NCBI GenBank assembly: GCA_964502885.1
Contig: CAZCXU010000001.1
Location: forward strand, 93,352 to 157,351
DNA: 64,000 nucleotides
Origin: an uncultured Gammaproteobacteria bacterium
GTDB lineage: Bacteria > Patescibacteriota > Microgenomatia > CAZETR01 > Amesbacteraceae
Direction: 5' to 3'
Made by a program: the position numbers and the translations under genes. This document shows positions 6,667 through 33,234 of this stretch, piece after piece (the first letter of the stretch is position 1; each line of letters begins with the position of its first letter). The notes below the pieces were generated by a model that searched no databases, was not told the DNA's origin, and saw only the letters and a list, made by a program, of their open reading frames with translations.

Positions 6667-6670
6667 ATAC

Positions 6671-17033: not shown

Positions 17034-17321
17034 TTAATGATGATTAATTTCTTCAAGTAATATGAGCGGAAGTTTGAGCAAATGATCCTTTTCTTCCTGA
17101 TAAGGGTCGGAGAAATGTTCATCTGTAGAGTGTGTTTCCACTTCGCGGCGAAGCTCTTCTGTGCTTTTGTGGAGGACCTGCCCAGCCCATTGCCAAAGCG
17201 GGTCAGCGTCTGTTTTGAACTGATCAAAATTATGACAGGAATTACAGATTTCAATTACGGCGTTTTCCAGACTGCTGACGACAGATGGATTTATGTAGTC
17301 AGGGTAGGCAAAAGTGTTCAT
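17034..17321 (-). CDS. Small acidic cytoplasmic hypothetical protein, translationally coupled to the VirB4-like gene
   Basis: 95 aa with no hydrophobic segment. Its start overlaps the VirB4-like stop by 4 nt. Confidence 0.5.
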   Translation of the reverse strand: MNTFAYPDYINPSVVSSLENAVIEICNSCHNFDQFKTDADPLWQWAGQVLHKSTEELRREVETHSTDEHFSDPYQEEKDHLLKLPLILLEEINHH

Positions 17322-19183
17322 TTTGATTCAGGAACCAGTATTGGTTTGGTTTGAGTTTCAGCTTGTTTTTGAGCTAATATTTCGGAGGGTTTGGTGGTAA
17401 TTAGCTTGTGTTCGTCCGGGGATGCTACAAAGCGAACAGCTACGTGATTGTTTCCTGCAAAAAACAGACCTTCTCCAACGTTTGCTGACAGGAGAAGGTG
17501 TTTTTCTCCCTCGGAGAGATAGAAGACCTGGGAAATTTTGTCGACTCCCGCTGGTGATTGTTTCATGAGTATTTGTAGGGAAGAACTGGTGACGATGGCT
17601 TTGCCGTAATCAGTGTTCAAAAAGTCTTCTACGTCCTGAGTAATAGTGGTAAGACCGAGAAAATACTTACGAGCGCGTTTGGCGACGCTGTAGAGGAAAC
17701 TGGCTGAGTCGGGATAACGCATGAGATACCAGGCCTCGTCTACCACAAGAATGCGTTTCTTGAGGTCGCGGCGCATTTTTGTCCAGATATAGTCAAGAAT
17801 GAGAAAGATAGCAATGGGCTTGAGAGAATCTTCGAGATCGCGGACAGAAAAAACTGTAAATTGATTTTTTAGTTGAATATTTGATGGCTGATCGACTATT
17901 CCGGTAAAACTTCCCTTTACAAATCGTTCTAGGCGATCAGCAAGAGATAGGGCTATGGGTTCTTCCATGCCAATGAAAGCTTTGTAAAGATCTTCCATTA
18001 GCGGGGGAGTATTTTTTTGTGTAGCGGGATCAGGGGTGATACCTTTCATACGATAAGCGAGATTGAGGGCGCGATCGAGAAGTGCGTCTTCTGTGGGGCT
18101 AAGGTTTCCCATGATGACTTTGAACATGGAATGCAGCGATTGAATTTTGAGATTAAGCTCGTTTTCATCTGAATTTTGGGTAAGAAGGGAAAGATCAAAG
18201 GGGTTGATGCGATTTTGAGAATTGTAGGAGAAATTGATGTAGTCGCCTCCTACGGCATCACAGAGGGCTTTGTATTCGTTTTCAGGATCTATAACGATTA
18301 TTTCTGTACCAAACATCATGGAACGAACCAGTTCAAGTTTAATGGTGTAAGACTTTCCCGCACCGGATTTGGCGAATACTACTGAGTTGGCGTTTTCCAG
18401 AGAGAAGCGATCAAAAATGACCAAACTGCCGTTGTGCTGATTTATTCCATAGAGGATGCCGTCATTGCTGGTGAGCTCTGATGAGGTGAAAGGGAAGGTG
18501 GTGGCCAGAGAGGTGGTGTCCATGTTTCTGGTGACCATAAGATGGTCGATACAGGTGGGGAGGGTGGTTTTGAAACCTTCAGCCTGCTGGAGGAGTGTGG
18601 GTGTAGAGGCCACTAGAAGAGATGAAAGGGAGCTAGTGACCTGTTTACTGGCAGTTTCAAGTTCGGAGGGGGAATCGGCGGGAATGGTGACATAGAGAGA
18701 GAATTGAAAGAAGCGTTCGATGCCTTTGACGAGTTGATCCTGAAGAGCCAGAGCGTCTTCGAGTTTGGCTTGGGTTACAGGATCGACAACGCGGCCGCGT
18801 TGGGCGTCAGTGTTTAGCTCGGCTTCCATTTCGGCAATCTTTCGACGCAGATCGTCGAGCGTGGACTTGCTTTCTACAGGATAGATGAACATGGAAATAT
18901 TTAGTGAATGGTCAAAATTAATGATGGGACTAAGCCAGTTGCTGGAGACGAAGCGGCGGTTTATTGAGGTGAAGTAGGTGCGGAAATATGTGTCGTTGAT
19001 TTTTAATGAATTGAAATCGATGGTAATGTTTTGTGGGGCGATGATATCCTTGACTGTTTTGGCCTGGGATAATTCTTTTTGGGGGAGAGCCATATTTGTG
19101 TCTGGGACGTTACCGGAGACCTGAGTTGCAGGAGTGGCAGTTTTTTTGACGGGGGTAAGGTTAGGGAGTTTTGGTAGCTTCAT
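17318..19183 (-). CDS. VirB4/TrbE/PrgJ-type type IV secretion ATPase
   Basis: Contains Walker A VVFAKSGAGKSYTIKLE and Walker B KRILVVDEAWYLM. The N-terminal domain has the usual APQNITIDFNSLKINDTYFRTYF...YP pattern of Gram-positive VirB4 homologs. The C-terminal segment is GLTTITQDVEDF...LQILMKQ. Confidence 0.85.
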   Translation of the reverse strand: MKLPKLPNLTPVKKTATPATQVSGNVPDTNMALPQKELSQAKTVKDIIAPQNITIDFNSLKINDTYFRTYFTSINRRFVSSNWLSPIINFDHSLNISMFIYPVESKSTLDDLRRKIAEMEAELNTDAQRGRVVDPVTQAKLEDALALQDQLVKGIERFFQFSLYVTIPADSPSELETASKQVTSSLSSLLVASTPTLLQQAEGFKTTLPTCIDHLMVTRNMDTTSLATTFPFTSSELTSNDGILYGINQHNGSLVIFDRFSLENANSVVFAKSGAGKSYTIKLELVRSMMFGTEIIVIDPENEYKALCDAVGGDYINFSYNSQNRINPFDLSLLTQNSDENELNLKIQSLHSMFKVIMGNLSPTEDALLDRALNLAYRMKGITPDPATQKNTPPLMEDLYKAFIGMEEPIALSLADRLERFVKGSFTGIVDQPSNIQLKNQFTVFSVRDLEDSLKPIAIFLILDYIWTKMRRDLKKRILVVDEAWYLMRYPDSASFLYSVAKRARKYFLGLTTITQDVEDFLNTDYGKAIVTSSSLQILMKQSPAGVDKISQVFYLSEGEKHLLLSANVGEGLFFAGNNHVAVRFVASPDEHKLITTKPSEILAQKQAETQTKPILVPESK

Positions 19184-19832
19184 TTTTGACTGATGGAACG
19201 GGAACTTTTGGTAAGGTAACGTTTGTTCCCATTACATCCTGATTATAGGAATTAAAAAATAACTGTAATAGTTCATTTGAGGTTATTTGGCGCCCTTTAA
19301 GACCTATGCGAGCGAGAAGTCGCAACAAATGATCTCTTTTGGGAACAAGGTTTGTAATGGCCCGATCAACTATATAGTCTTTGGGGAGAGTGGTATTTGC
19401 TGACTTACCTCCCAGAACTTTCAGCGAAGAACCAACACCTAATTCAAGTGAACTAAATGGCAAAGATATGTAGAATTTTTTATCCAACACATTTCCCTGA
19501 CGAACGATGGCTTTGACGAAGTCGCGATATTTAGTAAGCTGTTCCTTGAGCTTTGATGTGGTGATTTGGGCAAGGTGAGTGTCCAGTTTTTCGATATAAC
19601 TGGAAATATCTTTTCGTTTGCTGATGAGAACGATTTGGATGGAAAAAGTGAGTGAGTTTAGAAGCTGTGCGTAGGCATAAATGGTGGCGTCCTGCTCTCT
19701 TTCTGAAAGAAGACCAAAGTTGACGGCGCTAATTTCCATGACCATACAGGCCGAGCCGTCTTTGAGAATGACGATGTCGTTTTGAATATCTTCAATGTCC
19801 AGATGATCTTGTGTGCGGGGGGGGATAGTCAT
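19161..19832 (-). CDS. Hypothetical protein resembling a stand-alone VirB4 N-terminal domain
   Basis: I chose the start at ATG 19832 (MTIPPRTQDHLDIEDIQNDIVILKDGSACMVMEISAVNFGLLSEREQDATIYAYAQLLNSL), 8 nt after the upstream stop. The pattern (TQD.L.I..I.d.iv.lkDGs....eisa.NF.L.se.Eqd) is typical of the extreme N-terminus of Gram-positive VirB4-like ATPases. No P-loop is present. Confidence 0.55.
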   Translation of the reverse strand: MTIPPRTQDHLDIEDIQNDIVILKDGSACMVMEISAVNFGLLSEREQDATIYAYAQLLNSLTFSIQIVLISKRKDISSYIEKLDTHLAQITTSKLKEQLTKYRDFVKAIVRQGNVLDKKFYISLPFSSLELGVGSSLKVLGGKSANTTLPKDYIVDRAITNLVPKRDHLLRLLARIGLKGRQITSNELLQLFFNSYNQDVMGTNVTLPKVPVPSVKNEATKTP

Positions 19833-19839
19833 ACTTTTT

Positions 19840-20931
19840 TTAGGTTTTTCCGTGAATAATAACAGGGCTAATAATACTGCCTTTGGCTTGAATAGAAACC
19901 GGGTCAAAAGTTAAACCTTCCTTTTCGGCGATGACGTTGTAAGTTCCGGCTGGCAAGGGAATGGCAATTTGGAACTGACCGAGACGATTGGTTCTTAGGG
20001 CCCGTGCAGGAATACCTGTCTTGGTATCAATAATCTCTACAGTTGTTTGTGCTAACGGCTGGGAAGCTGCATCTACAACCATGCCGGTGAGAATATTCGG
20101 ACTGGCAGGATTGGGAAGCTGAGTGGTGACTGTAGCAGATGGGGCTGAAGGAATATTTACAGGTTTGGGAAGCGGGGGAGTGTTAGCAACAACAGCTGAA
20201 ACACCAGAGGAGGTGAGAATTGGTGAGGTAGGAGTGGTGGGTGTAGCTAAAACTGTTTGTGGTGACGCTTCGGCGTGGGGTGTGCCTGCCGATGAGAAAG
20301 AGGTTGAGATGGTTGGAGTTGAGGTGGAATTTTTAACTGGAGATGTAAAGACTGGTTGGGCGCGTGCAGGGGAAGTGGGGATAGGTGCAGAAGAAGGGGC
20401 AGATGTAGGGATAATGGGGGGAACAGTTGAATTAGGAGCGGGTGTGGGAACAATGGAGGAAATGGCTGAGTTAGGAGTAGTTGATGGAGGTAGAGTTTTT
20501 GCGGTGGACATCTGCGGTTCAATTTTTATGGCAGCAGGAATTGGTGCCGGAACGGTGGTGACTGGTTGAGGTGTAGGTGGCGACGGTGGAGCGGCTGTTG
20601 CAGTGGGTGTGATTGGTGGGGGTGGGGCAAGGCTCGCAACGATTTCGTCAGAGATCCAGACATACTCAGTGGGAGAATAGATGGCTTTAAAAAAAGCGAC
20701 GAGCCAAGTGGTAAAGGGTCGATTGTTGATAGGGATAAAGGCCATGAGTGCACCCGTGGTGATGGAAATAAAAACCAGCGGGTATTTGATTATGGGGATT
20801 AATTGGAGACGGAAAATGAGCACCCCCACAACAATGCCTCCTGCCAGCTGGAGAAATTGCTTGAGGGTCATATCGCCCACGAGACGGAACTCGTAGGAGG
20901 AAATATTTTGCGGGACAGGGTGGTTATCCAT
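19840..20931 (-). CDS. PrgI/VirB3-like membrane protein fused to a long P/T/S/A-rich linker and a C-terminal CarboxypepD_reg-like beta-sandwich
   Basis: The N-terminus VPQNISSYEFRLVGDMTLKQFLQLAGGIVVGVLIF plus a second TM helix matches the PrgI family pattern. Residues about 100-290 are low-complexity P/T/S/A. The C-terminus is TGMVVDAASQPLAQTTVEIIDTKTGIPARALRTNRLGQFQIAIPLPAGTYNVIAEKEGLTFDPV. Confidence 0.65.
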   Translation of the reverse strand: MDNHPVPQNISSYEFRLVGDMTLKQFLQLAGGIVVGVLIFRLQLIPIIKYPLVFISITTGALMAFIPINNRPFTTWLVAFFKAIYSPTEYVWISDEIVASLAPPPPITPTATAAPPSPPTPQPVTTVPAPIPAAIKIEPQMSTAKTLPPSTTPNSAISSIVPTPAPNSTVPPIIPTSAPSSAPIPTSPARAQPVFTSPVKNSTSTPTISTSFSSAGTPHAEASPQTVLATPTTPTSPILTSSGVSAVVANTPPLPKPVNIPSAPSATVTTQLPNPASPNILTGMVVDAASQPLAQTTVEIIDTKTGIPARALRTNRLGQFQIAIPLPAGTYNVIAEKEGLTFDPVSIQAKGSIISPVIIHGKT

Positions 20932-21005
20932 AAGCTGGTTTACATTTATCCTACCGCGTGAAAGAGAGTTTGCAAGCTAATGTTTTCACATACTAGAATA
21001 GAGTC

Positions 21006-21128
21006 ATGGTTGAGCAGGGAAACTTCAAAGATAAGGTTGCTTTTGTGTTTGGTGGTGCAATCCTTGGATTGATGGGATTGGTGGCTATAATCTTGAAGAT
21101 TGTGGGGAGGATTTGTGGCTGTTTCTGA
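21006..21128 (+). CDS. Possible 40-aa single-TM micro-protein (below the track cutoff)
   Basis: ATG 21006 to TGA 21126-21128 encodes MVEQGNFKDKVAFVFGGAILGLMGLVAIILKIVGRICGCF. It lies in the divergent intergenic region between the PrgI-like gene and the 926-aa orphan. Nothing supports it beyond the ORF and its TM character. Confidence 0.25.
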   Translation: MVEQGNFKDKVAFVFGGAILGLMGLVAIILKIVGRICGCF

Positions 21129-21166
21129 ATCTATCCTATAGTTGATAATTCGTGGTAAAATGAGAG

Positions 21167-21175
21167 TGTTATACT
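21167..21175 (+). promoter_or_regulatory. Extended -10 element TGTTATACT ending 6 nt before the ATG of the 926-aa gene (leaderless geometry)
   Basis: TGTTATACT lies at 21167..21175 and the ATG at 21182. The identical 9-mer occurs upstream of pilin paralog 10 (reverse strand, 30349..30357). Confidence 0.35.
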
Positions 21176-21181
21176 AATTTC

Positions 21182-23962
21182 ATGGACGATATGAGCAGCG
21201 AATCTAGACGGTCTGGTAGACTTGATTTTGACTCTGGCTTGGACGCTTCCCAAGTTAACAGAAGTGGGGATGTTGTAGGCCGAAATGTTCAAGAGTGGGG
21301 AGGGCGGGGGAGGCAGGTTGATGCGGAAGATGATAATTTAGAAATTTTCAAAAAAAAGTTGGAAGAAGCGGAGAACTTTTCTAGTATTCAGACTTATGTA
21401 GTGGGATATTTGGAGAGAGCTGAACAGAGAAACATCGTCGAGAGAAACGCAGCTTTGGAATTAATTCTGGAGAGGTCGAGATCATTTAAGGAGGTGGACT
21501 TAGGAATTCAAAGAGCTTTAAAAATCTCTCTAAAGGAGGAAAGGTTTGAAGAGTTGAAACAACTGAAAGACGAACAAGCAGCGTTGATGGTGGTGGCTGA
21601 TTCTTTAGATATGTTTGAAGGGGTAAGGCAGGTGGCTAGAGCAGGCCAGGGGGATTATTTACGAGGGAAGAGAGACGCGGATGAAATCTTTTCTGGAGCT
21701 GTGGGGCCTAATGTGTCAAATATAAGGGGTTCAGAGAAATTGCAAGGAATGGTGGACAGATACCAAGCCACAGCTGTAGGGGTGTGGGAATGGGCAAAAA
21801 GTGTGGCAAAGGGCGCGGATTATGAAGGTCGAACAAAAGAAGGTTTAGAGGCGTTGGGATGGGGAACTATCCCGTTTAGAGAAACATTGAACTTGGCAAG
21901 GGTTATAACGGAAGAAACTGTTTCTCCACCGGAAACTCCCCCCAGAGTTGGTCCATCTGGTGGTGACCCATCTCGAGGACCAGAAAGTGAGATTTTTGCT
22001 GAAAGGGCAAGGAGAGCAGAAGAGTTGTTGATAGCAACGGGATTAAGTAACAATGGTTTGCCAACATCAATTGCTGAGTTGGATGCTATTGAACAAGGGG
22101 CTCCATACATCGAAAAAACAGGCAGACCTTTGTATGGTGGAATTTTGCACAACCTGCTTAATAAATACATGACAGTTTCGGTGACTGAGGGAGAGAAAAG
22201 ATTGGGGTTGGCTAGTAAGGTGGAGGCTAATTTTACTTCTGATGAGTTGCTACTAATTAACGACAGAGATGTGAGGTTTTGGGTTCAAGTGTTTGCCTTT
22301 GGGTTTGGGTTGGGGTCTCGAACGAAAATTAATTCACATTTAAATGAGAATCAGGGTGGTTTTGTGAAGAATGCTTCAGGAGAAGCTCCCATGCAGGGGA
22401 GAAGTGTGGGTGAAATGTTAAATGCAATTGCAGGTAGGGATGTTGAGAATGATGAAAGAATGTGGGGAGAATATCGTATGGAGGCGGGGCGACGGGTGGC
22501 TCCCTCTAAGGATAATACATGGAATAAAGCTTTTGGAAATGTGCAGTATGGTGAATGGGAGGTTTTGCAGGTGGCGATGATGAGAGCAATAGTGTTGCGA
22601 GGGAATCCAGAGATTTCTTCGGATGAACTCGACACAATAATTCGTACTAATAAAAATTTACGTATGGGTTTAGCTGGGGCGAGGATGTATGCAATGGCGA
22701 CACATATGGGAGATCAGTTTGCAGTCGAATCTAAACACTTTTTAGCAACGGCGGCATATTTTGAGTTCCATTTTCAAGCAGCAGCCGTGGATAGATTGGC
22801 AAAATTATCATTACCACACAGGTTTAGGAGTTATATGAATTTAAACTCAGACTTATTTAAGGACTCGCAGGGAAACTGGAGTGATGAAACACTTATGCAT
22901 CGCAGATTATTTGCCCCTGATGTAATGCGATCAGTTATATGTTCTCCTGCTGTGTTTTCGCGAGGAGTACAAGGACCTAATCCGGAAGAATCAAGATATG
23001 AACCACAGGAGACAATCTTAGACTTGGCCATAAGGGGCATAGAAGTTCGACAAGATGCGTTGCAAACAGGGGTAACTCCTACCCGTATTTATAGTTTTGG
23101 AGTAAATGCGGCCGAAAAAATATTTAATTTGGCTTTTGGGGGTGGGACTCCCCCCGAAGGGCCGGATGTAAAGTTTGACAGAGATAAGGGATGGGCGTGG
23201 AATATGGGGCAGGAAATTCTGGCTACAGCGCGGGATTTGGGTTGGATTATGGAATATGAAAATACCATTAAACAAGAAGGGGTGAGTATGACTCCAGCTG
23301 AAGCGTCTCGACGAAGAAGAGCGATAGAACATAATATTCAGAGGTTGGGTATCACTAGGTTTATGGCTGGGTTGGGAATGAGAATAGAAAGAGGCGAAGT
23401 GCACAATTTAACCGATTTGGCGGCTTGGGCGGTGGGGATGGTGCTTGATAGAAGCGCCAAGTTTGTACATCAGATGAATTTGCCGGACGGAAGTGTCAAG
23501 CAGTTGGAGTTTCGCTGGGTATCCAAGGAGGACTCAGAATGGGTTGTAGAACATGGGTTGAATAAAAGAGATGAGAAGTGGGTGGATACGAGAAGCCCTT
23601 GGTCTTATGTTTATGAGTTAGTAACCAGGAGAGCACCTAATCGTAGAGGTGAGTGGGAAACTAAGCAGGGTGGAGAAGATGATTTATTGATTCAGGTATT
23701 GGTAGATAAGGCAGGAGGGGATGCTTCGGAAGCGGCTATGCACAGAAGAGACCAACTGAATCATCGGGTTAGAAAGTGGCGTTGGGGAGTAGGTGACTAC
23801 TTCTTGGGGTGTGGAGGGACTGCTACTAAAGAGGATGTGAGGCTTCGGGAGAGCTTTGAAGAAAAAATTGCGGGTGGTAGGGATATGCCCAAAATAGACA
23901 GGTTAACTCCATATCAAAAGGTGTACAACACATTGGACTTTTCTGATTACGGTAAAAGCTAA
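21182..23962 (+). CDS. Large orphan protein (926 aa) with no recognisable domain, signal peptide or TM helix
   Basis: The ORF is long and uninterrupted, with a coiled-coil-like N-region (EIFKKKLEEAENF...EERFEELKQLKDEQAAL). It is the only plus-strand gene inside the minus-strand T4SS-like gene string. No motif I recognise is present. Confidence 0.7.
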   Translation: MDDMSSESRRSGRLDFDSGLDASQVNRSGDVVGRNVQEWGGRGRQVDAEDDNLEIFKKKLEEAENFSSIQTYVVGYLERAEQRNIVERNAALELILERSRSFKEVDLGIQRALKISLKEERFEELKQLKDEQAALMVVADSLDMFEGVRQVARAGQGDYLRGKRDADEIFSGAVGPNVSNIRGSEKLQGMVDRYQATAVGVWEWAKSVAKGADYEGRTKEGLEALGWGTIPFRETLNLARVITEETVSPPETPPRVGPSGGDPSRGPESEIFAERARRAEELLIATGLSNNGLPTSIAELDAIEQGAPYIEKTGRPLYGGILHNLLNKYMTVSVTEGEKRLGLASKVEANFTSDELLLINDRDVRFWVQVFAFGFGLGSRTKINSHLNENQGGFVKNASGEAPMQGRSVGEMLNAIAGRDVENDERMWGEYRMEAGRRVAPSKDNTWNKAFGNVQYGEWEVLQVAMMRAIVLRGNPEISSDELDTIIRTNKNLRMGLAGARMYAMATHMGDQFAVESKHFLATAAYFEFHFQAAAVDRLAKLSLPHRFRSYMNLNSDLFKDSQGNWSDETLMHRRLFAPDVMRSVICSPAVFSRGVQGPNPEESRYEPQETILDLAIRGIEVRQDALQTGVTPTRIYSFGVNAAEKIFNLAFGGGTPPEGPDVKFDRDKGWAWNMGQEILATARDLGWIMEYENTIKQEGVSMTPAEASRRRRAIEHNIQRLGITRFMAGLGMRIERGEVHNLTDLAAWAVGMVLDRSAKFVHQMNLPDGSVKQLEFRWVSKEDSEWVVEHGLNKRDEKWVDTRSPWSYVYELVTRRAPNRRGEWETKQGGEDDLLIQVLVDKAGGDASEAAMHRRDQLNHRVRKWRWGVGDYFLGCGGTATKEDVRLRESFEEKIAGGRDMPKIDRLTPYQKVYNTLDFSDYGKS

Positions 23963-24020: not shown

Positions 24021-25751
24021 TTAGGATGTACCACCTGCGGGAGGGACAGGTCTTCGAATGTTGGCTTCTTTGGCTTTGGAGACTTGCTGACCAGCCGAAG
24101 TCAATTGTCCCATGGTGTCTTTGGCCATCTTTTCAACAAAGTCAGAAGGATCTACAGACTTACAGAACATGTTCTTAACCATGGTTGCTATGTTGGGGGC
24201 GAATGACATGGCCCCTACGAAAACTGCATATTGGACGAAAATATTACTGGGCATGTCAAATAAGGGAAAGTTGGCTTGGTTGTTAAAAAAGAAGCCTATG
24301 TCTCCGGCGAATCCTGGGACGGGAGTGCGAGTGTCAAACCCTGCATTAATTAGAATTGCTAAGAGAGCATATGTCACAAAAATTGAGGCATTGCCGATGA
24401 GACAAAGAAGCCATTTTTTAAATCCACCAAAATCAGATTTCTTCGATGGGATAATATCGAAAATAATTATTAGCGGGCCGGCGACAACCAGAAGATTAAA
24501 AGTAATAAAGGCGACCACAAATTGACCAATAATTCTGGCCCAGACGTAAATTGACCAAAGGAAGAAACCAAGAATGAAACCAGCTATGAGAACAACCACT
24601 CCTCCAGAAGCAAGATTAAGCAGTGCAGCTAGAACTATAGTGAGAATTATCAGTACTATGGAAACAACTATCCAAAAGGCAAGGAAATGCCAGACAAAAT
24701 CAAAACCGCCTCCAGCTAAGGTGGACATAGCAAGCGGCAAGTCAGTTATAATTGTCATGCCGATAGCTGTTTGGGCAAAATAAAGCATGCCAATAATTGC
24801 GGAAATGGCTAAGTACATCAGGTCAATTACGAAGCCGGCAATGGCGTATGAAAAGAGAACCAACACAATAGATATGGCAATGCGGGGAATAACCATTTGA
24901 ATTGTTACCGAGACTTGCGGAGATATTTTTGAACGGAACATAACCATAAAACCAGCAATGATGATAATCAGGGTGGTAATTAATAGTGCGATGTTTCGAG
25001 TGGCGATCCAAAATGCTCGGGTAGGAGAGTCTGTCGTTCCGGTACCACCCAAGCCAAGTCTTTCGTAACCACTTCCTTGCGCAAACGTGTCCGAGACAAT
25101 GTTGAGTTTTGAAGCAAGTTGTTTAGTTTCAGACCAGGCTGAGGGGAGGGTGTCAATTTGTGATGAGATATAGTAGGTAAGCTTGAGTACTCCAATATAA
25201 CTTTGACCTATGAATCCATATTTATTAACAAATGCCAGATCAGAAGAAGAAAAATTTTGAGTGACGAGCATGCTGCGGGCAAGATCTATCGCTGTGAGTA
25301 AATCAGTGATGTTTTGCAAAAGGGCTGCTGGATCAGGAGAAGATATAACTGAGGGAAATAACATCGAAGAGAGAGAGTTGAGGATCCAGTTTACTTGAGC
25401 GTAGGTGTAGCGCTCACCAAAAATTTCGTCGGGATTTGTATTGTCGAAAACTTTTTGCTGGAACTCCTGAATTGAAGGATTGTACCAAGGGTGTGGTGTT
25501 ACTTCGGCGAAGAACAAACGGGAGATTTCGTAGATGAGATAGGAGCAACGTGCTGCATCACCGAAAGGGTTGGGGGAAATGGCTTGACAGGCAGCATCTG
25601 CCTGAGCGCACAGCGGCTCGGCGGGATCACAGGTCGGTTGGGCAAGAACCGGTGATGGTGTGATAAATACTGTTAACCCTATGAATAGAAACGAAAGGGT
25701 AAAAAGGTATTTTTTAATCAGCATTGAAAGATGTTTTGTCATGGAAGACAT
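24021..25751 (-). CDS. VirB6/TrbL-like polytopic membrane protein candidate
   Basis: 576 aa with a signal/anchor (LFTLSFLFIGLTVFITPSPVLAQP) and a roughly 230-aa extracytoplasmic region carrying 4 Cys. At least 6 long hydrophobic helices follow (for example ALLITTLIIIIAGFMVMF, IAISIVLVLFSYAIAGFVIDLMYLAISAIIGMLYF, WHFLAFWIVVSIVLIILTIVLAALL), ending in a hydrophilic tail. The call rests on topology and neighbourhood, not on a sequence motif. Confidence 0.5.
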   Translation of the reverse strand: MSSMTKHLSMLIKKYLFTLSFLFIGLTVFITPSPVLAQPTCDPAEPLCAQADAACQAISPNPFGDAARCSYLIYEISRLFFAEVTPHPWYNPSIQEFQQKVFDNTNPDEIFGERYTYAQVNWILNSLSSMLFPSVISSPDPAALLQNITDLLTAIDLARSMLVTQNFSSSDLAFVNKYGFIGQSYIGVLKLTYYISSQIDTLPSAWSETKQLASKLNIVSDTFAQGSGYERLGLGGTGTTDSPTRAFWIATRNIALLITTLIIIIAGFMVMFRSKISPQVSVTIQMVIPRIAISIVLVLFSYAIAGFVIDLMYLAISAIIGMLYFAQTAIGMTIITDLPLAMSTLAGGGFDFVWHFLAFWIVVSIVLIILTIVLAALLNLASGGVVVLIAGFILGFFLWSIYVWARIIGQFVVAFITFNLLVVAGPLIIIFDIIPSKKSDFGGFKKWLLCLIGNASIFVTYALLAILINAGFDTRTPVPGFAGDIGFFFNNQANFPLFDMPSNIFVQYAVFVGAMSFAPNIATMVKNMFCKSVDPSDFVEKMAKDTMGQLTSAGQQVSKAKEANIRRPVPPAGGTS

Positions 25752-25797: not shown

Positions 25798-28700
25798 TTA
25801 GGGAAAGGGAAACGGGCAGCTGGGAGCAATCCATTCCCATTTGCCTTGAAGGCCAGGATTTGCGGCGGTACCGTCTCCCAACGCATATAGATCGGATTCG
25901 GCGGTGGGAATGCAGGAGTCACCCACCAGGTATATGGCAGAGAATACCCGTACTCCTCCGTAAGTATTTATTTCAGATGCGCAACGGGATCTGATGGCAT
26001 TTACGGTAAGGAGGTGACCGGTGATTTGCTGATCGAAGTTGTTTGGTGTGTTGTATTGACCGACGTGAACGCCAAAATCTTCTACTGGAGTGTTGGCTTC
26101 GTAATTGCTGGCGTCCGATTCGTTTAACCAAATCAATAGTGAAAGTCCAGGATTTACGCCGGCGGCGTCTGCGCGTGTGACGACGTCGTTGTAGCAAAGT
26201 TCTGCGAAAGTGCCATCCGGAAAATTGGTCCAGCGCCTGGCGATGTCTATGTAGTTAGTGCGATCTACACAGGGTGTGTTGGTTTCGGGAAGATTGGTGT
26301 TGCAGTTTATGCCGCCCGGTGAGTCTATAGGGCTGACTGATCCTACAAAGCCTTTTGGTCGGAGGGCGCGTTGGAGATTGAGGTTTTCACGGGTGGGGAC
26401 ACCAAGAATGTGATCGGCAAGGCTGCCGACCTTGGGAAAATAAAAAGCTCCCCCAGAAGTGCGCAAACCTCCTCCGATACCACCAGAGGCTACATTACGT
26501 CCTGCCGTGACACGGGGATTGATCAAATTTTGCACCTGGCCGTTGTAGGCTGCACTAGTTCCTGCCGGTATGGATACGTCTCTGTTGTTGGTGATGTCGT
26601 AATCGGTTTGTGTGATCTGCCAAATGCAGGAGTAGCCCTGGGATGCCATTGCCTGACAGGCTGTTTCGGTTAATTGGTTAGAACAAATTCCAAGATCTCG
26701 GGGTGAGGTGGTGGTGCAAGCTTCATATGTGCCAGTCAGGGGGAGTTTGGGCATCCAGCGACGAAGGACTGAGTTTGGGCCTGCCACAAGGATGTCATAG
26801 AGCTTTTCGATGTATGGTGTTTTTACAAAAGGATTAACCCGTGCAGCTGATCTCAGGTTGCGGGTTGGCCAGACAGGGCAGTGAGGAGGACGAGGGGCCA
26901 GTGCGGGAGCGGCACGAACAACACGCCACTCACAGTATGGTGACATTCCGGCGGCAGTACACCCAGTTTGGTCCAGGGCCGAACAAACAGAAGCATAACT
27001 ATCGTATCCAGATCTGCTGCGGCAGGCATATTCATCAGTGGGGGCACAACATATTTCGCCAGCATTACCACAATCCAGATCAATTATTTCCCGATTTTCG
27101 CCACATCCGTTTGGACCGGGCGCGCGGCAGTCGTATGTGGAGCTGGCATGGTAGCACTCGCTAATCCAAGGACAGCGTTGTCCGATTTGAATCGTGCAGC
27201 ATTCGCCCCCAGGAAGCTGGTCATTGCATTCATCTCCCTCCAGGGAACAGGGTCTATTGATGCAGTTGCCGGCACCGGCGGGACACGGGTTTGCGTCACA
27301 GCCAATTACGAGTCGGGGTGTGTAGCGGAAGAGCTGACGATATGTAAGATTTCCGTTTAGGACGTTTCCCAGCAGGCGATCTCCGGATGAAGTACGAGTT
27401 TCGGCTTCGTCGCAAGTAAAGTCTGATGGAACATATAACGCAGCGGGCGCAGGTCCGTCAATAATTTCCGTGTTGCGAATGACAGTTCCGCCACCAGAGC
27501 AGCCCCTGAGAATGGAGCCTGCAAAATATCTTTGGCAGAGAACAACTGTTTCGTCGGAGTGTCCTTCGGATGCTCCAAAACCCTGATGGCGGGCAACTCT
27601 TTGGGAAAACATATTGCTATTTTCAGAACTGAACAAGGGAGCGTGTGTGGCGGCAGGGGGTGTTGGCGTTGGAGTAGGTGTGGCCAGAACAACAGTTTGA
27701 CTTGAATAACTGGATCCGGCGAGACGAATACGAATGCTGCCGGGGAGACCGCGACTGACAAACCACTGGCTACTTCCGCCGTAGCGATAATATGAATGAG
27801 GCCATGTAGGTATGATGCCTTCGTAATAGCGTTGCACACTGACACTGGGGTCAACATAGTTACTGAGTGGACCGTAGTCTTGGTTTGTTGTCGGATCAAA
27901 AACATGGAATTGGTTCCAAAGCGCTTCACCCATACCTGGCAAACCGTAATAAACATCTATCAGGTTGTAAGCTGGCAAGTAAAAAGCCCGGAGATAGTCT
28001 GCCGGATTTGTTGATAAAACAGGAGTGGGGATTGGGGGCGGGGGGGGAGGGGCGGTGGGAGGAACAATTACCGGATATGGCTGATGCAAAGCTTGGACGA
28101 GACTTGATAAAGGAACAGCTGATTTCATGTGCGGGAAATAAAGCCGTGAATCAAAGCGGCCTGAAATAAGGGTGGGAAAACTGAGGCCAATAGTGAGAAT
28201 TCGGCCATCGATGTCTACGGGTTGAGCTTCCGGAATAACACTTGCTGTAAACTCACTCACAGTGTCCTCAAGAGTTGAGTAATTGATGTATTTATGTGTC
28301 CAGGTTTCGGTATCGAAATTGCTGGCCACCCAACTAAGGCGGCGACGCAGGGTGCTGCTGACGCAGGGTTCTGCGAGGTCGAGACGTAAAGCTGCAGTGA
28401 TGTTTCCGATGCGACTCAGCAGGTTTCTGCCTAGGGAAAAAAGCATGTTTACATCATCAAGGTTGTTGGCTATCACAGTAAAACCGTAATTTAAAAGTAC
28501 ATTTCTAATTCCGATTGGGTTGAATTGATCGCCCGGAAGTAAGGCAATGTTGACAAGTGCGCCACCAAAATCCTGCATATTATTCATGCCAACTCGACGG
28601 ATGATATCGATCATTCTGACAACATCAAGGAAACTGCCAAATGAGTTTGTAAATATTGCTTCCAGAGCGTCTAAAACATAATCAAAGTCGATGTTCCGCT

Positions 28701-29460
28701 GACAGGAAACCAGATAGTTGTGGTACTGTGACCCTACGTTGTTGCTGGCAACGGTTTCCTTTATGTCATCACGGAAGTCTTTTGGATATAATTTGTTTAT
28801 TGGCCCTGAATAAGAGGTGATGCGTTTAGTGTCGGCCGGATCGAAACCGTTTAAGGGAAGTTTTTCTGACTGGAATACCGTACCATTCAGATACCAATTA
28901 AGATATTGGTTAACTTTGTAATCGTCGGGAATTGCAACTTCGGTCTGGCCGAAAATGGGGAGTTGGGAGTTGGTCGCATTGATAGCGACTGTCCAGCGAA
29001 CTCGTTTGACGTAGCAAATGTCTGTGGATCCTGACTCACAGAGATAGTCGTCAGAACGATCGCCGCCCTCCTGGGTTAGGGGGACACTGATGGGGTTGGC
29101 CGGGAGGACTGAAAGACCACACATGTCAATAACGTCTGAGACCTCATCGTAACCTGAGACATTTAGGGATTTGGCACAATGAAATGAGAGATAGACTTTA
29201 TTGGGATCGTCCGGGGCTTCGGGGACTTTTGCGGGAATGAGGACATCGCAAGGGTTTCCAGGATAGGGTCTTAGCGGATGAAATTCCGGATCGTTTCCGG
29301 TATTTGTGTGGCAAGGATAATTAAATGGAGCCGGCCAGGGGTTACGGGTAAAAAATCCGAGAGTGGGGGTCTGGGCGTGAATAAGATTTAGCCATGGAGT
29401 GATGGCAGAAAAGACTGCTACAACAGAGCTTACTACTAACAACTTAACGGTCGGTTTCAT
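25798..29460 (-). CDS. Giant secreted Cys-rich protein (1220 aa), possible surface/tip adhesin with a lysozyme-like C-terminal region
   Basis: The signal peptide is MKPTVKLLVVSSVVAVFSAITPWLNLIHAQ. Proline tracts are present (PPTAPPPPPPIPTP, ATPTPTPTPP). A dense Cys cluster is encoded at about 26920..27305 (CDANPCPAGAGNCINRPCSLEGDECNDQLPGGECCTIQIGQRCPWISECY...). The C-terminal segment AGVNPGLSLLIWLNESDASNY resembles the catalytic Glu-Ser region of SLT/lysozyme-like domains, but this is a weak call. Confidence 0.65.
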   Translation of the reverse strand: MKPTVKLLVVSSVVAVFSAITPWLNLIHAQTPTLGFFTRNPWPAPFNYPCHTNTGNDPEFHPLRPYPGNPCDVLIPAKVPEAPDDPNKVYLSFHCAKSLNVSGYDEVSDVIDMCGLSVLPANPISVPLTQEGGDRSDDYLCESGSTDICYVKRVRWTVAINATNSQLPIFGQTEVAIPDDYKVNQYLNWYLNGTVFQSEKLPLNGFDPADTKRITSYSGPINKLYPKDFRDDIKETVASNNVGSQYHNYLVSCQRNIDFDYVLDALEAIFTNSFGSFLDVVRMIDIIRRVGMNNMQDFGGALVNIALLPGDQFNPIGIRNVLLNYGFTVIANNLDDVNMLFSLGRNLLSRIGNITAALRLDLAEPCVSSTLRRRLSWVASNFDTETWTHKYINYSTLEDTVSEFTASVIPEAQPVDIDGRILTIGLSFPTLISGRFDSRLYFPHMKSAVPLSSLVQALHQPYPVIVPPTAPPPPPPIPTPVLSTNPADYLRAFYLPAYNLIDVYYGLPGMGEALWNQFHVFDPTTNQDYGPLSNYVDPSVSVQRYYEGIIPTWPHSYYRYGGSSQWFVSRGLPGSIRIRLAGSSYSSQTVVLATPTPTPTPPAATHAPLFSSENSNMFSQRVARHQGFGASEGHSDETVVLCQRYFAGSILRGCSGGGTVIRNTEIIDGPAPAALYVPSDFTCDEAETRTSSGDRLLGNVLNGNLTYRQLFRYTPRLVIGCDANPCPAGAGNCINRPCSLEGDECNDQLPGGECCTIQIGQRCPWISECYHASSTYDCRAPGPNGCGENREIIDLDCGNAGEICCAPTDEYACRSRSGYDSYASVCSALDQTGCTAAGMSPYCEWRVVRAAPALAPRPPHCPVWPTRNLRSAARVNPFVKTPYIEKLYDILVAGPNSVLRRWMPKLPLTGTYEACTTTSPRDLGICSNQLTETACQAMASQGYSCIWQITQTDYDITNNRDVSIPAGTSAAYNGQVQNLINPRVTAGRNVASGGIGGGLRTSGGAFYFPKVGSLADHILGVPTRENLNLQRALRPKGFVGSVSPIDSPGGINCNTNLPETNTPCVDRTNYIDIARRWTNFPDGTFAELCYNDVVTRADAAGVNPGLSLLIWLNESDASNYEANTPVEDFGVHVGQYNTPNNFDQQITGHLLTVNAIRSRCASEINTYGGVRVFSAIYLVGDSCIPTAESDLYALGDGTAANPGLQGKWEWIAPSCPFPFP

Positions 29461-29484: not shown

Positions 29485-29880
29485 TTAGGAGCAGCCGATG
29501 CCTCTGGCTATACAGATATCAAATATTCCCAAATTGATACCGAGGAAAGTGCCAATAAGGTTGACTATTACGAATGCTGACAAGGTGATTATTAATCCTG
29601 CAAGAGAAAAGATAATTGTATTTCTTGCTTGTTCGGTTTGGGCTTTGTCTGCTCCTGCAGCTAGATACTTGTATCCACCAATAACCAGAAATCCTAAAGA
29701 AATGAAAACAAAAAGGCTGATGATTGCGGTAATCGCAGCGGCTATTACTCTATTTAGGTTCTGGAGCATTGCGGGCGGAGTAGGGTTTGCAATTGTTGTT
29801 TGAGCTTGAGCGACAGTAGGCCATGCTAATACGAATACAGATGCGGCCAACGTGATCAGTGAGCGAATTGTTGTGTACAT
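29485..29880 (-). CDS. T4SS pilin-like paralog 11 (VirB2/TrbC-type), divergent, with Sec signal peptide
   Basis: The signal peptide ends AWPTVAQAQ. The core is ISLFVFISLGFLVIGGYKYLAAGADKAQTEQARNTIIFSLAGLIITLSAFVIVNLI, i.e. two TM helices around a charged loop. The C-terminus ends CIARGIGCS. Confidence 0.7.
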   Translation of the reverse strand: MYTTIRSLITLAASVFVLAWPTVAQAQTTIANPTPPAMLQNLNRVIAAAITAIISLFVFISLGFLVIGGYKYLAAGADKAQTEQARNTIIFSLAGLIITLSAFVIVNLIGTFLGINLGIFDICIARGIGCS

Positions 29881-29896
29881 CTGTTTTTAATATAGG

Positions 29897-29936
29897 GCAA
29901 AAAAACAACCCCGGCAAGGGCCCGGGGTTGTTTTGG
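29897..29936 (-). terminator. Strong rho-independent terminator after pilin paralog 10
   Basis: An 11-bp perfect stem pairs AACAACCCCGG (29904..29914) with CCGGGGTTGTT (29922..29932) around a 7-nt loop. On the minus strand the hairpin is followed by a T7 run (complement of A 29899..29905). Confidence 0.75.
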
Positions 29937-29960
29937 CCATTTCTGGCCGGTTCCAAAAAC

Positions 29961-30323
29961 TTATGAACCAATCGTTGCGAGATTGAATTCGATAAGGTTG
30001 ACGTTGAAGAGAACACGCAGAATGTACAGTAAGGCGTAAGCAGAGAAGACGATTGCCAAACCGATTAAGGCGGCAGTGATCTTCTTGCGAGCTTTTTCGG
30101 TACCTTCTTTGTCTCCACCAGCGAGAATCCATTGTAAACCACCCCAAAGTAGGATGATAAAGGAAGCTACGCCAGCGATACCCAACATAAGATTCAAGAT
30201 GGTTCTCAAGAAATCTGATGGGGTATAGTTCTTCAAAGTGTCGAAACGTGTATCGACGTTAGCCACGCTACCGACATCCGAGTCTGGAATAGGAAGAGCA
30301 AGTTGTGCAAGTAGTCTCATCAT
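29961..30323 (-). CDS. T4SS pilin-like paralog 10 (candidate major pilin)
   Basis: Starts at ATG 30323, 5 nt after the SD-like GGTGAG. The core is IAGVASFIILLWGGLQWILAGGDKEGTEKARKKITAALIGLAIVFSAYALLYILRVLFNVNLIEF. It is flanked by its own candidate promoter and by the terminator at 29897..29936. Confidence 0.8.
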   Translation of the reverse strand: MMRLLAQLALPIPDSDVGSVANVDTRFDTLKNYTPSDFLRTILNLMLGIAGVASFIILLWGGLQWILAGGDKEGTEKARKKITAALIGLAIVFSAYALLYILRVLFNVNLIEFNLATIGS

Positions 30324-30348
30324 CAAATCTCACCGCCTTTCAGTGGAA

Positions 30349-30357
30349 AGTATAACA
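30349..30357 (-). promoter_or_regulatory. Extended -10 element (TGTTATACT on the minus strand) upstream of pilin paralog 10
   Basis: The plus-strand AGTATAACA at 30349..30357 is the reverse complement of TGTTATACT. It lies in the only sizeable gap (53 nt) within the pilin array. Confidence 0.35.
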
Positions 30358-30379
30358 TAAAATCAGTGCCGGAGGCTAA

Positions 30380-30754
30380 TTAGAGGGGTGTGATAGTGTA
30401 CTCAATGAGATTGACGTTGAAGAGGGTACGGATGATATACAGAATCGCATAGGATGAAAATACGATAGCCAATCCTATGAGAGCATAGCTGATTTTGCGG
30501 CGAGCTTTCTCGACTGCGTCTTTGTCGGATCCAGCGGTAATCCATTGAAACCCACCTATTAGGAGGAATAAGAATGCGGCAACACCTGACAGGCCCAGGA
30601 GGGCAAGAATCGACGTGCGGATATAGCTGGCGGGCTGAATATTGTAGGTGTTAGCAAAAGGAGAGTTGGGGTCGCGTAGATCTATTAATTGCTGGGCATC
30701 AATAGAAGGAGGAAAGAGAAGCAAGCTTGCCAGGAGAGCGAGAATCAGTTTCAT
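30380..30754 (-). CDS. T4SS pilin-like paralog 9, with Sec signal peptide
   Basis: The signal peptide is MKLILALLASLLLFPPSIDAQ. The core is LSGVAAFLFLLIGGFQWITAGSDKDAVEKARRKISYALIGLAIVFSSYAILYIIRTLFNVNLIEY. Confidence 0.8.
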   Translation of the reverse strand: MKLILALLASLLLFPPSIDAQQLIDLRDPNSPFANTYNIQPASYIRTSILALLGLSGVAAFLFLLIGGFQWITAGSDKDAVEKARRKISYALIGLAIVFSSYAILYIIRTLFNVNLIEYTITPL

Positions 30755-30782
30755 GTGAGTTCGAGTTTATAAGAAAGGGTTG

Positions 30783-31454
30783 TCAGTTACAAGGGATGCA
30801 GGTAATCAGGCCACATCCAGTCGTGCCGAGCGGAGTCCAAGAGCCGTTTGATTCGCATCGGAAACATGGACCATTTATGACAGATGTTGATCCTAACGTG
30901 CCTGCCGGAATGCATCTTCCAGTTGCAGATCCGCCACAGGCACACATGCCGGATGGTGGGGTGATGTCGCAGCCGGGATCTGTGGGGTTAGTACAAGGAA
31001 TCCCTGAATCCCAGGGATCACTACCAGGAGCAGGTGGGTTGGGGTCGTTGATCTGAGAGGAAATTTCCCCGATATGTCCGAGGTTGAATTGAATTAAATT
31101 GATGTTAAAGAGGGTGCGGAGAGCAAAAAGGAAACTGTAGGCTGAAAAAACAATTACCAGTCCAATTAAAGCCTGAACAACCTTTCTGCGGGCTTTTTCA
31201 ATTGCGTCTTTATCACCACCAGCCAGTATCCACTGAATACCGCCGATAAGCAGGAATATAAAAGAAAAAACTCCTGCCAGTTGGAGGAGAAGGTTTAGAA
31301 GTGTGGTCAATATCATTGATGGGGTGAGGCTGCGAATTGTCGTAAAATCCGGATCGACGTTTTGTTCTATGCCAATGTAGTCTTGTGCTTTTGCGGTTGC
31401 AGGCATTAAGAACATAGAAATAACTGTGGAGATGTGAACCAGGTGGTTTCGCAT
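30783..31454 (-). CDS. T4SS pilin-like paralog 8 with signal peptide and a C-terminal 12-Cys extension
   Basis: The signal peptide ends PATAKAQ. The core is LAGVFSFIFLLIGGIQWILAGGDKDAIEKARRKVVQALIGLVIVFSAYSFLFALRTLFNINLIQF. A roughly 90-aa tail follows: PCTNPTDPGCDITPPSGMCACGGSATGRCIPAG...CFRCESNGSWTPLGTTGCGLITCIPCN. Confidence 0.8.
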   Translation of the reverse strand: MRNHLVHISTVISMFLMPATAKAQDYIGIEQNVDPDFTTIRSLTPSMILTTLLNLLLQLAGVFSFIFLLIGGIQWILAGGDKDAIEKARRKVVQALIGLVIVFSAYSFLFALRTLFNINLIQFNLGHIGEISSQINDPNPPAPGSDPWDSGIPCTNPTDPGCDITPPSGMCACGGSATGRCIPAGTLGSTSVINGPCFRCESNGSWTPLGTTGCGLITCIPCN

Positions 31455-31460
31455 GGGTAA

Positions 31461-31802
31461 TTAGAGGTTTCTTAAGGTGAATCCAATCGGATTTACATTA
31501 AATAGGACACGCAATATATAAAGAATGGCGTAGGAAGAAAAGACGATAACTAAACCTATCAGCGCGTTGATGATTTTACGGCGGGCTTTGTCGATACCAT
31601 CTTTGTCGCCACCGGCAGTAATCCACTGAACTCCACCCCAGAGCAGATAAATAAAGAAGCCAACACCAGCAAGACCCAAGAGAAGACTGATGGCTGTAGC
31701 GACATAAGCGGAGGGTTTGAGGTTTGTAATGTAGTCGTAGTTGCTGTCACCAGAATTGACAGTGATGGGAACAAATTGAGCCAATAGGTGTTGGTTGATC
31801 AT
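31461..31802 (-). CDS. T4SS pilin-like paralog 7
   Basis: The N-terminus is MINQHLLAQ. The core is LAGVGFFIYLLWGGVQWITAGGDKDGIDKARRKIINALIGLVIVFSSYAILYILRVLFNVNPIGF. Confidence 0.8.
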   Translation of the reverse strand: MINQHLLAQFVPITVNSGDSNYDYITNLKPSAYVATAISLLLGLAGVGFFIYLLWGGVQWITAGGDKDGIDKARRKIINALIGLVIVFSSYAILYILRVLFNVNPIGFTLRNL

Positions 31803-32131
31803 AGTTCAGGAACGTTGAGGGAGAGAATCGAGACGCCAAATAACACTTCGATTATCCAAATGATTACGAATGAAGAAAGAAGTATGGCAATTCCAATAAG
31901 GGCATTACGAATACGGTGTGTGGCTTTCTGGACGCCTTCCTTATCTCCGCCGGCGGTGATATAGGCAAAACCACCCATTAACAAGTTGACGAAAAAATAA
32001 ATTCCACTTAATCCCATGACGGCATTTAAGACGTTTCTTAGTAGCAACTGGACCATGCTGTCAGCCTCGTTGACGTTGATATTTCCGATTTGACTGTTGA
32101 CCGCAGGGTTGACGATGGTAAACAGATACAT
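31799..32131 (-). CDS. T4SS pilin-like paralog 6
   Basis: The core is LSGIYFFVNLLMGGFAYITAGGDKEGVQKATHRIRNALIGIAILLSSFVIIWIIEVLF. It overlaps the next gene by 4 nt (ATGA). Confidence 0.75.
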   Translation of the reverse strand: MYLFTIVNPAVNSQIGNINVNEADSMVQLLLRNVLNAVMGLSGIYFFVNLLMGGFAYITAGGDKEGVQKATHRIRNALIGIAILLSSFVIIWIIEVLFGVSILSLNVPEL

Positions 32132-32134
32132 ATT

Positions 32135-32518
32135 TTAAGGTGAAGCAACAATTAACTGCAATCCGAGACGAAAGATGTCCAATCCCAGGAATCGGCCAAT
32201 GATTCCAATTAGTCCGTATGATCCAACAACTATGAACATACCCAATATGGAAGTGGAAAGACGTTTTTTGCTTACCTCCACGGTATTTTTATCGCCACCG
32301 GCACCAATCCACTGCATTCCGGAAAGGACTATTTGATAGATGAACCAAAGTGACGCGACTATAGTGAGTAAACCGAGGATAGAAGAAACAAATTTTTCCA
32401 ACATATCTCCGGGCCCTCCACCTGTGCCAGTCATAAAAAGTCCTGAATGTCCAAATGTACCCAGAGGTCCGACACCGTCAATGTTTCCCAAGTTGACTTG
32501 AGCTAAAAGGTTTCTCAT
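32135..32518 (-). CDS. T4SS pilin-like paralog 5
   Basis: I chose the start at ATG 32518 (MRNLLAQVNLGN...), which gives a 4-nt ATGA overlap with the upstream stop. The core is VASLWFIYQIVLSGMQWIGAGGDKNTVEVSKKRLSTSILGMFIVVGSYGLIGIIGRFL. Confidence 0.75.
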   Translation of the reverse strand: MRNLLAQVNLGNIDGVGPLGTFGHSGLFMTGTGGGPGDMLEKFVSSILGLLTIVASLWFIYQIVLSGMQWIGAGGDKNTVEVSKKRLSTSILGMFIVVGSYGLIGIIGRFLGLDIFRLGLQLIVASP

Positions 32519-32874: not shown

Positions 32875-32880
32875 AGTTTT

Positions 32881-33231: not shown

Positions 33232-33234
33232 TTT

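Follow-up and report, generated by a model that had tools for sequence, protein, structure and literature searches.

The stretch examined here comprises 64,000 nucleotides (nt) of contig CAZCXU010000001.1 (assembly GCA_964502885.1; hereafter, the window) and carries a chromosomal type IV secretion system (T4SS) locus in which one large gene runs against its neighbors. It is termed the slot gene, a name used in this and in related loci for the opposite-strand open reading frame (ORF) between the VirB6-like and PrgI-like genes; the window copy encodes a protein of 926 amino acids (aa). With high probability, the slot gene is a real member of a T4SS-locus-specific polymorphic cassette that joins a conserved promoter to exchangeable, mosaic coding bodies. 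In what follows, L-numbers (L001, L002, and so on) designate related T4SS loci, and P-numbers (P0002, P0003, P0009) designate database relatives. The slot gene, the segments of its product, and the elements preceding it are listed below.

21182..23962, plus strand: slot gene, ATG start, TAA stop, open frame of 2781 nt, 926 aa
Residues ~1-45 of the product: predicted disordered N-terminus
Residues ~90-245: N-domain, common to the L009 slot protein
Residues 245-270: Pro-rich linker
Between the Pro-rich linker and the C-domain: unique middle part
Residues 424-891: C-domain, common to the L002 slot protein
21170..21175, plus strand: -10-like hexamer (TATACT) whose end is 6 nt from the ATG at 21182; no Shine-Dalgarno sequence
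21153..21161, plus strand: extended -10-like element TGgTAAAAT, kept as GGTAAAAT in L001 and L004
21135..21142, plus strand: conserved cis-element (CCTATAGT box), ~27 nt before the -10 hexamer
21006..21128, plus strand: micro-ORF of 40 aa with one transmembrane (TM) segment, ending in CGCF
20957..20999, unstranded: divergent promoter region, CGTGAAA-N19-TTTTCAC (20957-20989) around a palindromic TTGCAA (20970-20975), followed by TAGAAT (20994-20999)

As the initial annotation had stated, the 926-aa frame is real and opposite in strand to all of its neighbors; in a greedy map of non-overlapping ORFs of at least 70 aa, each other ORF in 15644-34055 lies on the minus strand, and the slot gene is the sole large plus-strand gene of the T4SS locus. 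The largest minus-strand ORF within it measures 128 aa, and the plus frame is therefore the coding one. Its composition (GC content 0.449; GC content at third codon positions, GC3, 0.399; third-position G/C counts 279/91) and its codon usage agree with those of the other plus-strand genes in the window. Composition, open frame, and the size of the opposing ORF together identify a native, long-resident coding gene, neither a chance frame nor a recent foreign insert. That the ORF is spurious or decaying is a practically negligible possibility, its orphan status in databases being the sole point in favor; against it stand an open frame of 2781 nt in DNA of 45% GC, the native codon usage and third-position skew, two relatives detected at the protein level, and intact counterparts at 34 loci.

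The product is an acidic, soluble protein (isoelectric point 5.6) in which Gly, Glu, and Arg are abundant. Its maximum 19-residue Kyte-Doolittle mean is 0.88, so that neither a TM helix nor a signal peptide is present, as had been claimed from inspection; searches of Pfam, NCBIfam, PHROGs, PADLOC, and PDB sequences returned no match, and neither a P-loop NTPase nor an HUH/relaxase domain was found with Pfam, NCBIfam, or PDB sequences. The charged N-region that had been described as coiled-coil-like is indeed charged; the helical prediction begins after ~45 disordered residues, and the remainder of the protein is predicted to be all-helical.

The T4SS neighborhood

The window is chromosomal, holding yidC, jag, dnaA, dnaN, transfer-messenger RNA, and transfer RNAs (tRNAs). 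The T4SS locus adjoins dnaA/dnaN, and its closest VirB4 relatives place the window in an ultrasmall, Candidatus Amesbacteria-like bacterium (Microgenomatia, Patescibacteria/candidate phyla radiation). Its other components are as follows.

17318..19183, minus strand: VirB4 ATPase (PF19044 TraG P-loop, 2.5e-29; AAA_10, 2.1e-11)
19161..19907, minus strand: TrsD-like protein of 248 aa, related to the VirB4 N-terminus (NF041427 TrsD, 8.9e-6)
19840..20931, minus strand: PrgI/VirB3-like protein with a C-terminal CarboxypepD_reg domain (PF12666, 5.7e-8); divergent neighbor of the slot gene
24021..25751, minus strand: VirB6-like polytopic membrane protein of 576 aa with 5-7 TM segments; convergent neighbor of the slot gene
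25798..29460, minus strand: envelope protein of 1220 aa, bearing a TM or signal segment at its N-terminus and lacking a known domain; a variable component of the T4SS locus
29485..34055, minus strand: array of ~11 paralogous VirB2-like T4SS pilins (PF18895)

The PF12666 match upholds the earlier statement that the slot gene diverges from a PrgI-like gene, which heads a prgI-trsD-virB4 string. The T4SS-like character of the gene string, likewise proposed earlier, is borne out by the VirB4, PrgI, TrsD, and pilin matches (all 10 pilin ORFs scanned match PF18895, six of them above the curated cut-off); the VirB6-like assignment stands on weaker ground, as the window protein has no Pfam match and its L001 and L002 orthologs (46-48% identical) reach sub-threshold TrbL/VirB6 scores (PF04610; 6e-4 and 6e-3). 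The slot stop codon lies 58 nt from this convergent gene. Neither a relaxase nor a coupling protein was found among the locus proteins scanned. A split virB4 was considered and rejected; the 248-aa ORF is a separate TrsD-like gene (NF041427), and such a gene is treated as distinct from virB4 in the literature (PMC12102498).

Several further observations concern these neighbors. The pilin array contains a conserved 36-nt segment in six copies spaced 338-688 nt apart. The gene after virB4 (16162-17028) encodes 288 aa in the window and has homologs of 421-1917 aa in relatives; it may be truncated or strongly size-variable. A Shapirobacteria VirB4 homolog of 1194 aa (L081, 1-89; the gene runs off the locus) bears intein-splicing and LAGLIDADG domains. 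From ~14500 to 64000, a very strong third-codon-position G/C skew flips with the coding strand (slot gene 279/91; virB4 63/235); it begins right of dnaN and is weak left of dnaA. The T4SS machine genes are all head-on to the inferred direction of replication, and the slot gene is co-directional with it. Elsewhere in the window, two tandem copies of a 138-nt unit, 99% identical (53187-53463), start at the 3' end of tRNA-Ser(GGA) (53101-53190).

A conserved position and promoter

Relatives of the slot protein are scarce in sequence databases. A word-indexed search of 5.8 billion proteins, with the single sequence and with a three-sequence profile, matched the window protein itself and nothing else; an exhaustive phmmer search of 1.84 billion representative proteins gave just two partial relatives, namely P0002 (28% identity to residues 424-890) and P0003 (32% identity to residues 94-241). 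By tblastn, these are the slot genes of L002 and L009, respectively, two Amesbacteria-type loci in which the gene sits between VirB6-like and PrgI-like genes, upstream of virB4 and opposite to it in strand. Local jackhmmer runs with the window protein, in segments and at full length, found nothing beyond L002 and L009, and hhalign of the window-protein (W926) group against 15 other slot subfamilies gave no significant similarity. A tblastn search of plasmids and phages with the slot protein found no relative.

Position tells a different story from sequence. Eighty loci were collected around VirB4 homologs from species-representative genomes, and the positional count was restricted to the 35 in which both flanking genes (VirB6-like and PrgI-like) were recognizable; in 34 of these, an opposite-strand ORF of 526-1282 aa occupies the same place, including loci from records labeled Amesbacteria, Shapirobacteria, Woesebacteria, and Curtissbacteria. 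Independent look-ups placed two database relatives from a different slot subfamily at the same locus position, and jackhmmer searches started from slot proteins recruit other slot-region ORFs only and no unrelated protein. None of the 34 slot proteins has a credible Pfam or PADLOC domain (PADLOC gave four marginal single matches, E 0.003-0.009, and none for the window protein); all sources name them "hypothetical protein", and their clusters at 90% identity hold 1-10 members. In L001, the closest locus by VirB4 (91%), two slot-type genes stand in tandem (1824-5672, 1282 aa; 5706-8090, 794 aa), each with its own CCTATAGT box and neither resembling the window protein. No large opposite-strand gene was seen in the short Saccharimonadia-type loci sampled (e.g., L058).

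These results divide the synteny argument of the initial annotation, as sequence homologs are missing from almost all syntenic loci, while a positional counterpart is found in 34 of 35. The description of the gene as an orphan is sustained, the domain, defense, and PDB sequence searches being empty and no confident, unrelated housekeeping annotation having emerged; orphan status in sequence databases can mask a strictly conserved genomic position. The suggestion of an unrelated insertion, taken as a recent event, is rejected because of the fixed position, the native composition and strand bias, and the locus-specific promoter architecture common to the positional counterparts.

This architecture is conserved among Amesbacteria-type alleles that lack similarity in their coding parts. 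In these, ~25-30 nt separate the CCTATAGT box from a downstream -10 hexamer (TATACT or TATAAT), the hexamer ends 6-8 nt before the ATG, no Shine-Dalgarno sequence is present, and the coding part often starts with M-x-D-x-M-S-x-E. The window holds a single copy of the box, at 21135; in 1.29 Mb of related loci it occurs 12 times, and seven of these copies precede slot-type genes by 12-69 nt. Of 35 slot genes, 21 have an in-frame start preceded by a -10 hexamer at a distance of 5-8 nt, as against 16.7% of other ORFs. A -10 hexamer abutting the ATG without a Shine-Dalgarno sequence points to a dedicated promoter and suggests that the slot mRNA is leaderless. Farther upstream, the CGTGAAA-N19-TTTTCAC/TTGCAA element is kept in L002, L004, L008, L009, L014, L015, L071, L077, and L080, and its inverted repeat may be a putative operator. 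Neither RNA folding of this repeat nor a search of the convergent gap for an intrinsic terminator or RNA structure gave a significant result.

Divergent transcription from a common promoter region with a conserved inverted repeat is what would be expected if the slot protein regulated the divergent prgI-virB4 operon at the transcriptional or post-transcriptional level. Nevertheless, this role is very improbable; no DNA- or RNA-binding domain was matched in Pfam, and a protein of 926 aa that varies extremely while the common promoter DNA is conserved is unlike a cognate regulator.

The same region serves the 40-aa micro-ORF, which has a promoter-like site of its own (TTGCAA-18-TAGAAT), with the TAGAAT hexamer ending 6 nt before its ATG. 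The micro-ORF had been noted as a possible TM peptide, and this gains support from its one TM segment and from counterparts in L001 (41 aa) and L002 (40 aa) that keep the frame, the length, and the C-terminus K-x-[IV]-G-[KR]-x-C-G-C-F-stop. Nucleotide identity to these is ~50%, and per pair 9-12 of the last 30 codons differ synonymously only; synonymous differences at such identity indicate selection on the peptide. The micro-ORF is missing from L004, L009, L014, and further loci, and its absence from several loci marks it as a small membrane protein confined to a clade, not an obligatory partner.

Hypervariability and probable allele exchange

The slot gene is the most variable gene of the locus. 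Between relatives and the window, amino-acid identity ranges over 57-71% for DnaA, 45-59% for DnaN, 74-91% for VirB4, 28-48% for the VirB6-like protein, and 0-24% for the slot protein. VirB4 (17318-19183, compared with 12917-14275) is far more constrained than the replication proteins, and its locus neighbors are among the least conserved genes. The sharpest comparison is that of L014 and L015, two contigs from one metagenome bin, between which amino-acid identities are as follows.

DnaN: 100%
VirB4: 99.8%
TrsD-like: 99%
PrgI-like: 97%
Homolog of the 1220-aa protein: 94%
VirB6-like: 70%, dropping over the last 120 residues to 45, 25, and 8%
Slot protein: 30% over 93% of its length

At the nucleotide level, the two flanks are 93% and 84% similar, and similarity is lost at L014 5072-8194, an island that includes the C-terminal tail of the VirB6-like protein (the slot coding sequence is 5340..8207). 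Synonymous divergence of the flanks is low and point substitution cannot yield 30% identity, from which an exchange of whole alleles by recombination is inferred. In other pairs with DnaA 83-92% identical, slot similarity is none or negligible. A diversity-generating retroelement was dropped as a source of variation, as no template/variable repeat pair links the slot gene to another site; the only RVT_3 match in this check also matches RNase H and is read as an RNase H-type protein.

Conversely, related alleles occur in distant genomes. The slot proteins of L013 and L080 are 42% identical at 48% DnaA identity (VirB4 rank 30 of 34), and those of L031 and L078 (36%; DnaA 48%) and of L073 and L079 (38%; DnaA 40%) belong to loci in which the partner is the last of 34 VirB4 neighbors. 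Over 595 pairs, VirB4 identity and slot score show a Spearman rho of 0.10; slot allele similarity is decoupled from phylogeny. Patches of similarity are colinear, yet their partners differ by region, the window N-domain being shared with L009, the window C-domain with L002, the N-part of L002 with L013, and the C-part of L013 with L080, and slot genes are consequently mosaics. Variation covers the entire length of the protein and not the C-terminal tip alone.

The site also receives other genes. Insertions of toxin-antitoxin type modules separate the slot gene from prgI in L011 (6250-7100), L012 (6884-7805), L020 (7478-8324), L024 (6798-7641), and L081 (2264-5265); they comprise MNT/HepT, HEPN, AbiEii, HicA, and Gp49/HTH types, and L081 has several adjacent to each other (two MNT pairs and HicA). 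The slot-prgI intergenic site is an insertion hot spot.

It is conceivable that the slot itself is a recombination hot spot inherited from a conjugative-element ancestor, the ORFs of which are exchangeable cargo unrelated to secretion (e.g., unrecognized defense or anti-defense genes). Such a reading accommodates the several allele families that are mutually unalignable, the distribution incongruent with phylogeny, the HepT/MNT, AbiEii, HicA, and Gp49/HTH modules at the same intergenic site, and the empty slot of L022; however, alleles without coding similarity agree in size class, orientation, promoter architecture, first codons, and lack of domains, and homology between the L014 and L015 alleles extends over 93% of the length. 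PADLOC recognized no credible defense family in the 34 slot proteins, tblastn found no relative on plasmids or phages, and every relative found sits in a T4SS locus. On this balance, cargo unrelated to secretion is an unlikely explanation.

Function and comparison with known systems

The initial annotation had offered a secreted substrate or effector, or a cytoplasmic scaffold or regulator, as candidate roles; strain-level hypervariability and phylogeny-independent allele sharing are more in keeping with a role in host interaction or as a substrate than with a core scaffold. The favored reading, held tentatively and at somewhat less than an even chance, is that the slot protein may act in the T4SS as a translocated substrate or host-specificity factor. 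This reading is favored because the gene is tied to the machine by position and regulation, because its evolution resembles that of host-interaction genes, and because the system is without a known substrate, a relaxase, or a locus-encoded coupling protein.

Terminus traits of the slot family were compared with those of other proteins of the same loci. The family has a disorder-prone N-terminus (p=3e-18), which is clear in the window protein, a basic C-terminus (charge of the last 20 aa +2.0 versus +0.7, p=3e-5), and an amphipathic C-terminal helix (p=8e-5), with a hydrophobic tail anchor in some members (L034, L050, L063). With regard to C-terminal secretion-signal features, which had been mentioned at the outset, the family is enriched in this basic charge, and the window protein shows the C-terminal traits weakly.

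The same termini bear on a further possibility, that the slot protein serves the machine as a cytoplasmic, membrane-peripheral accessory, be it an adaptor, a gate, or a coupling-like factor, docking on the VirB6-like tail or on VirB4/TrsD; it would replace the missing coupling protein, and its variability would stem from co-evolution with a variable partner. The fixed position and orientation inside machine operons speak for such an accessory, as do the basic amphipathic helix or hydrophobic tail anchor (L034, L050, L063) at the end of many slot proteins, the VirB6-like C-terminal tail varying along with the slot gene, and the absence of an encoded type IV coupling protein (T4CP) at the locus (PMC12102498). 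Other machine parts are strongly conserved (VirB4, 84-91%), whereas 30% identity at 99.8% VirB4 identity and alleles that ignore phylogeny would be unusual for a stoichiometric subunit; moreover, L022 is without a slot gene, and the tail of the window protein is not amphipathic. A machine accessory is accordingly considered somewhat unlikely.

Several points weigh against a substrate or host-specificity role as well. L022, an Amesbacteria locus, is the one locus of 35 without a slot ORF; the C-terminus of the window protein is weakly basic (+1) and not amphipathic; Pfam and NCBIfam revealed in it no known domain of effector, toxin, or T4CP-binding type (such as BID or XVIPCD); and no immunity or chaperone gene adjoins the window slot gene, with its gap of 58 nt to the VirB6-like gene. 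The toxin-antitoxin modules inserted beside the slot gene elsewhere would also be expected of a site generally prone to recombination. That the VirB6-like tail co-varies suggests a recognition contact with the slot protein but may reflect linkage alone. The AlphaFold2 model of the window protein (three sequences) has a predicted local distance difference test score (pLDDT) of 34, which makes it unusable. The model of the L031 slot subfamily (nine-sequence alignment) reaches a pLDDT of 67 and a predicted template modeling score of 0.60; Foldseek searches of the PDB and of viral models with it gave nothing significant, the matches being generic helical repeats. By motif hidden Markov model, the conserved core of this subfamily is missing from the window protein, for which reason the L031 model is not transferable to it.

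The L031-type core (P0009 residues 322-391; L004 residues 869-935) stands within an otherwise variable protein. Its 69 residues are nearly invariant across distant lineages, with the pattern SLQLAER.A.ATLETSVWN....GNDPLAEAIYF..YR..R....RDRGP.ITI..IEGFGTS, and are of low confidence in AlphaFold despite this near-invariance; the core may be a docking motif.

In the favored reading, the slot gene is transcribed independently and occupies a dedicated variable site in the origin-proximal T4SS locus of Microgenomatia. The regulatory region, namely the CCTATAGT box, the -10 hexamer, and the first few codons, is conserved, and the modular coding body is replaced or reshuffled; recombination among a pool of very divergent alleles leaves near-identical strains with slot proteins of 30% identity or no detectable similarity. 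As a substrate or host-specificity factor, the soluble helical product would be recognized at the cytoplasmic face of the T4SS, possibly via the co-varying VirB6-like C-terminal tail, and would then be delivered to, or presented at, the host bacterium, and diversifying or frequency-dependent selection by hosts would maintain many alleles. Stated in full, with a leaderless-promoter cassette site whose horizontally exchanged, mosaic helical proteins are Patescibacteria T4SS substrates that set the exploitable hosts and have the VirB6-like tail as partner, the proposal is possible but doubtful.

Chromosomal T4SSs of Patescibacteria are described as MPF-FATA-derived (Wang et al. 2023, PMC10633639; Quinonero-Coronel et al. 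2025, PMC12102498), and their pilin arrays and near-origin position have already been published. The system is reported as essential to epibiotic growth in the one species tested, although its role is called completely unknown and it is without an identified substrate (PMC11665869, PMC10633639); the locus is said to lack a relaxase and a coupling protein (PMC12102498, PMC11665869, PMC10633639). The window resembles these loci in its VirB4, TrsD-like, PrgI/VirB3, VirB6-like, and VirB2-like pilin array genes beside dnaA/dnaN. In the sections consulted of PMC10633639 and PMC12102498, no mention is made of a large gene for a soluble protein on the opposite strand between the VirB6-like and PrgI genes, or of its hypervariability. 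A gene that is linked to the machine and yet is the most variable of its locus, exchanged independently of genome phylogeny under a conserved promoter, is therefore a concrete candidate for cargo or a host-specificity determinant. It offers population-genomic and biochemical handles, namely allele-host association, VirB6-like tail binding, and translocation reporters; if the reading is true, slot proteins would be the long-sought translocated substrates and would decide which host bacteria an epibiont can exploit.

Among other secretion systems, polymorphic effector and toxin loci include auxiliary effector modules of type VI secretion systems, LXG toxins of type VII secretion systems, and X-Tfe effectors of Xanthomonas-type T4SSs. 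The slot gene is like these in encoding a large protein without a signal peptide in or beside secretion genes, with mosaicism, strain diversity, and horizontal allele exchange; in contrast, its product has no LXG, PAAR, or XVIPCD trafficking domain, no toxin domain, and no adjacent immunity gene, and, unlike polymorphic toxins of the LXG, Rhs, or contact-dependent inhibition type, varies over its whole length and not just at a C-terminal toxin tip. The transfer clusters of integrative and conjugative elements (SXT/R391 type) contain variable hot spots, in which a fixed intergenic site among conserved transfer genes similarly takes up exchangeable DNA, toxin-antitoxin and abortive-infection modules included; the slot, however, holds one gene class with the same promoter, orientation, and size in 34 of 35 loci and not arbitrary cargo. 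In the entry-exclusion specificity pairs TraG/Eex and TraG/TraS, TraG belongs to the VirB6 family and the exclusion proteins are small membrane proteins; as in L014 and L015, a specificity gene has a VirB6-family neighbor with a variable segment that changes along with it, whereas the slot protein is soluble and of 926 aa and no conjugation function is evident for the window T4SS. What is new at this locus is the lack of a sequence or fold relative and of an immunity partner, the variation over the whole length, and the setting in a monoderm-type T4SS; in kind, judged by analogy, the slot gene is a polymorphic accessory gene at a secretion locus, as is familiar from other systems.

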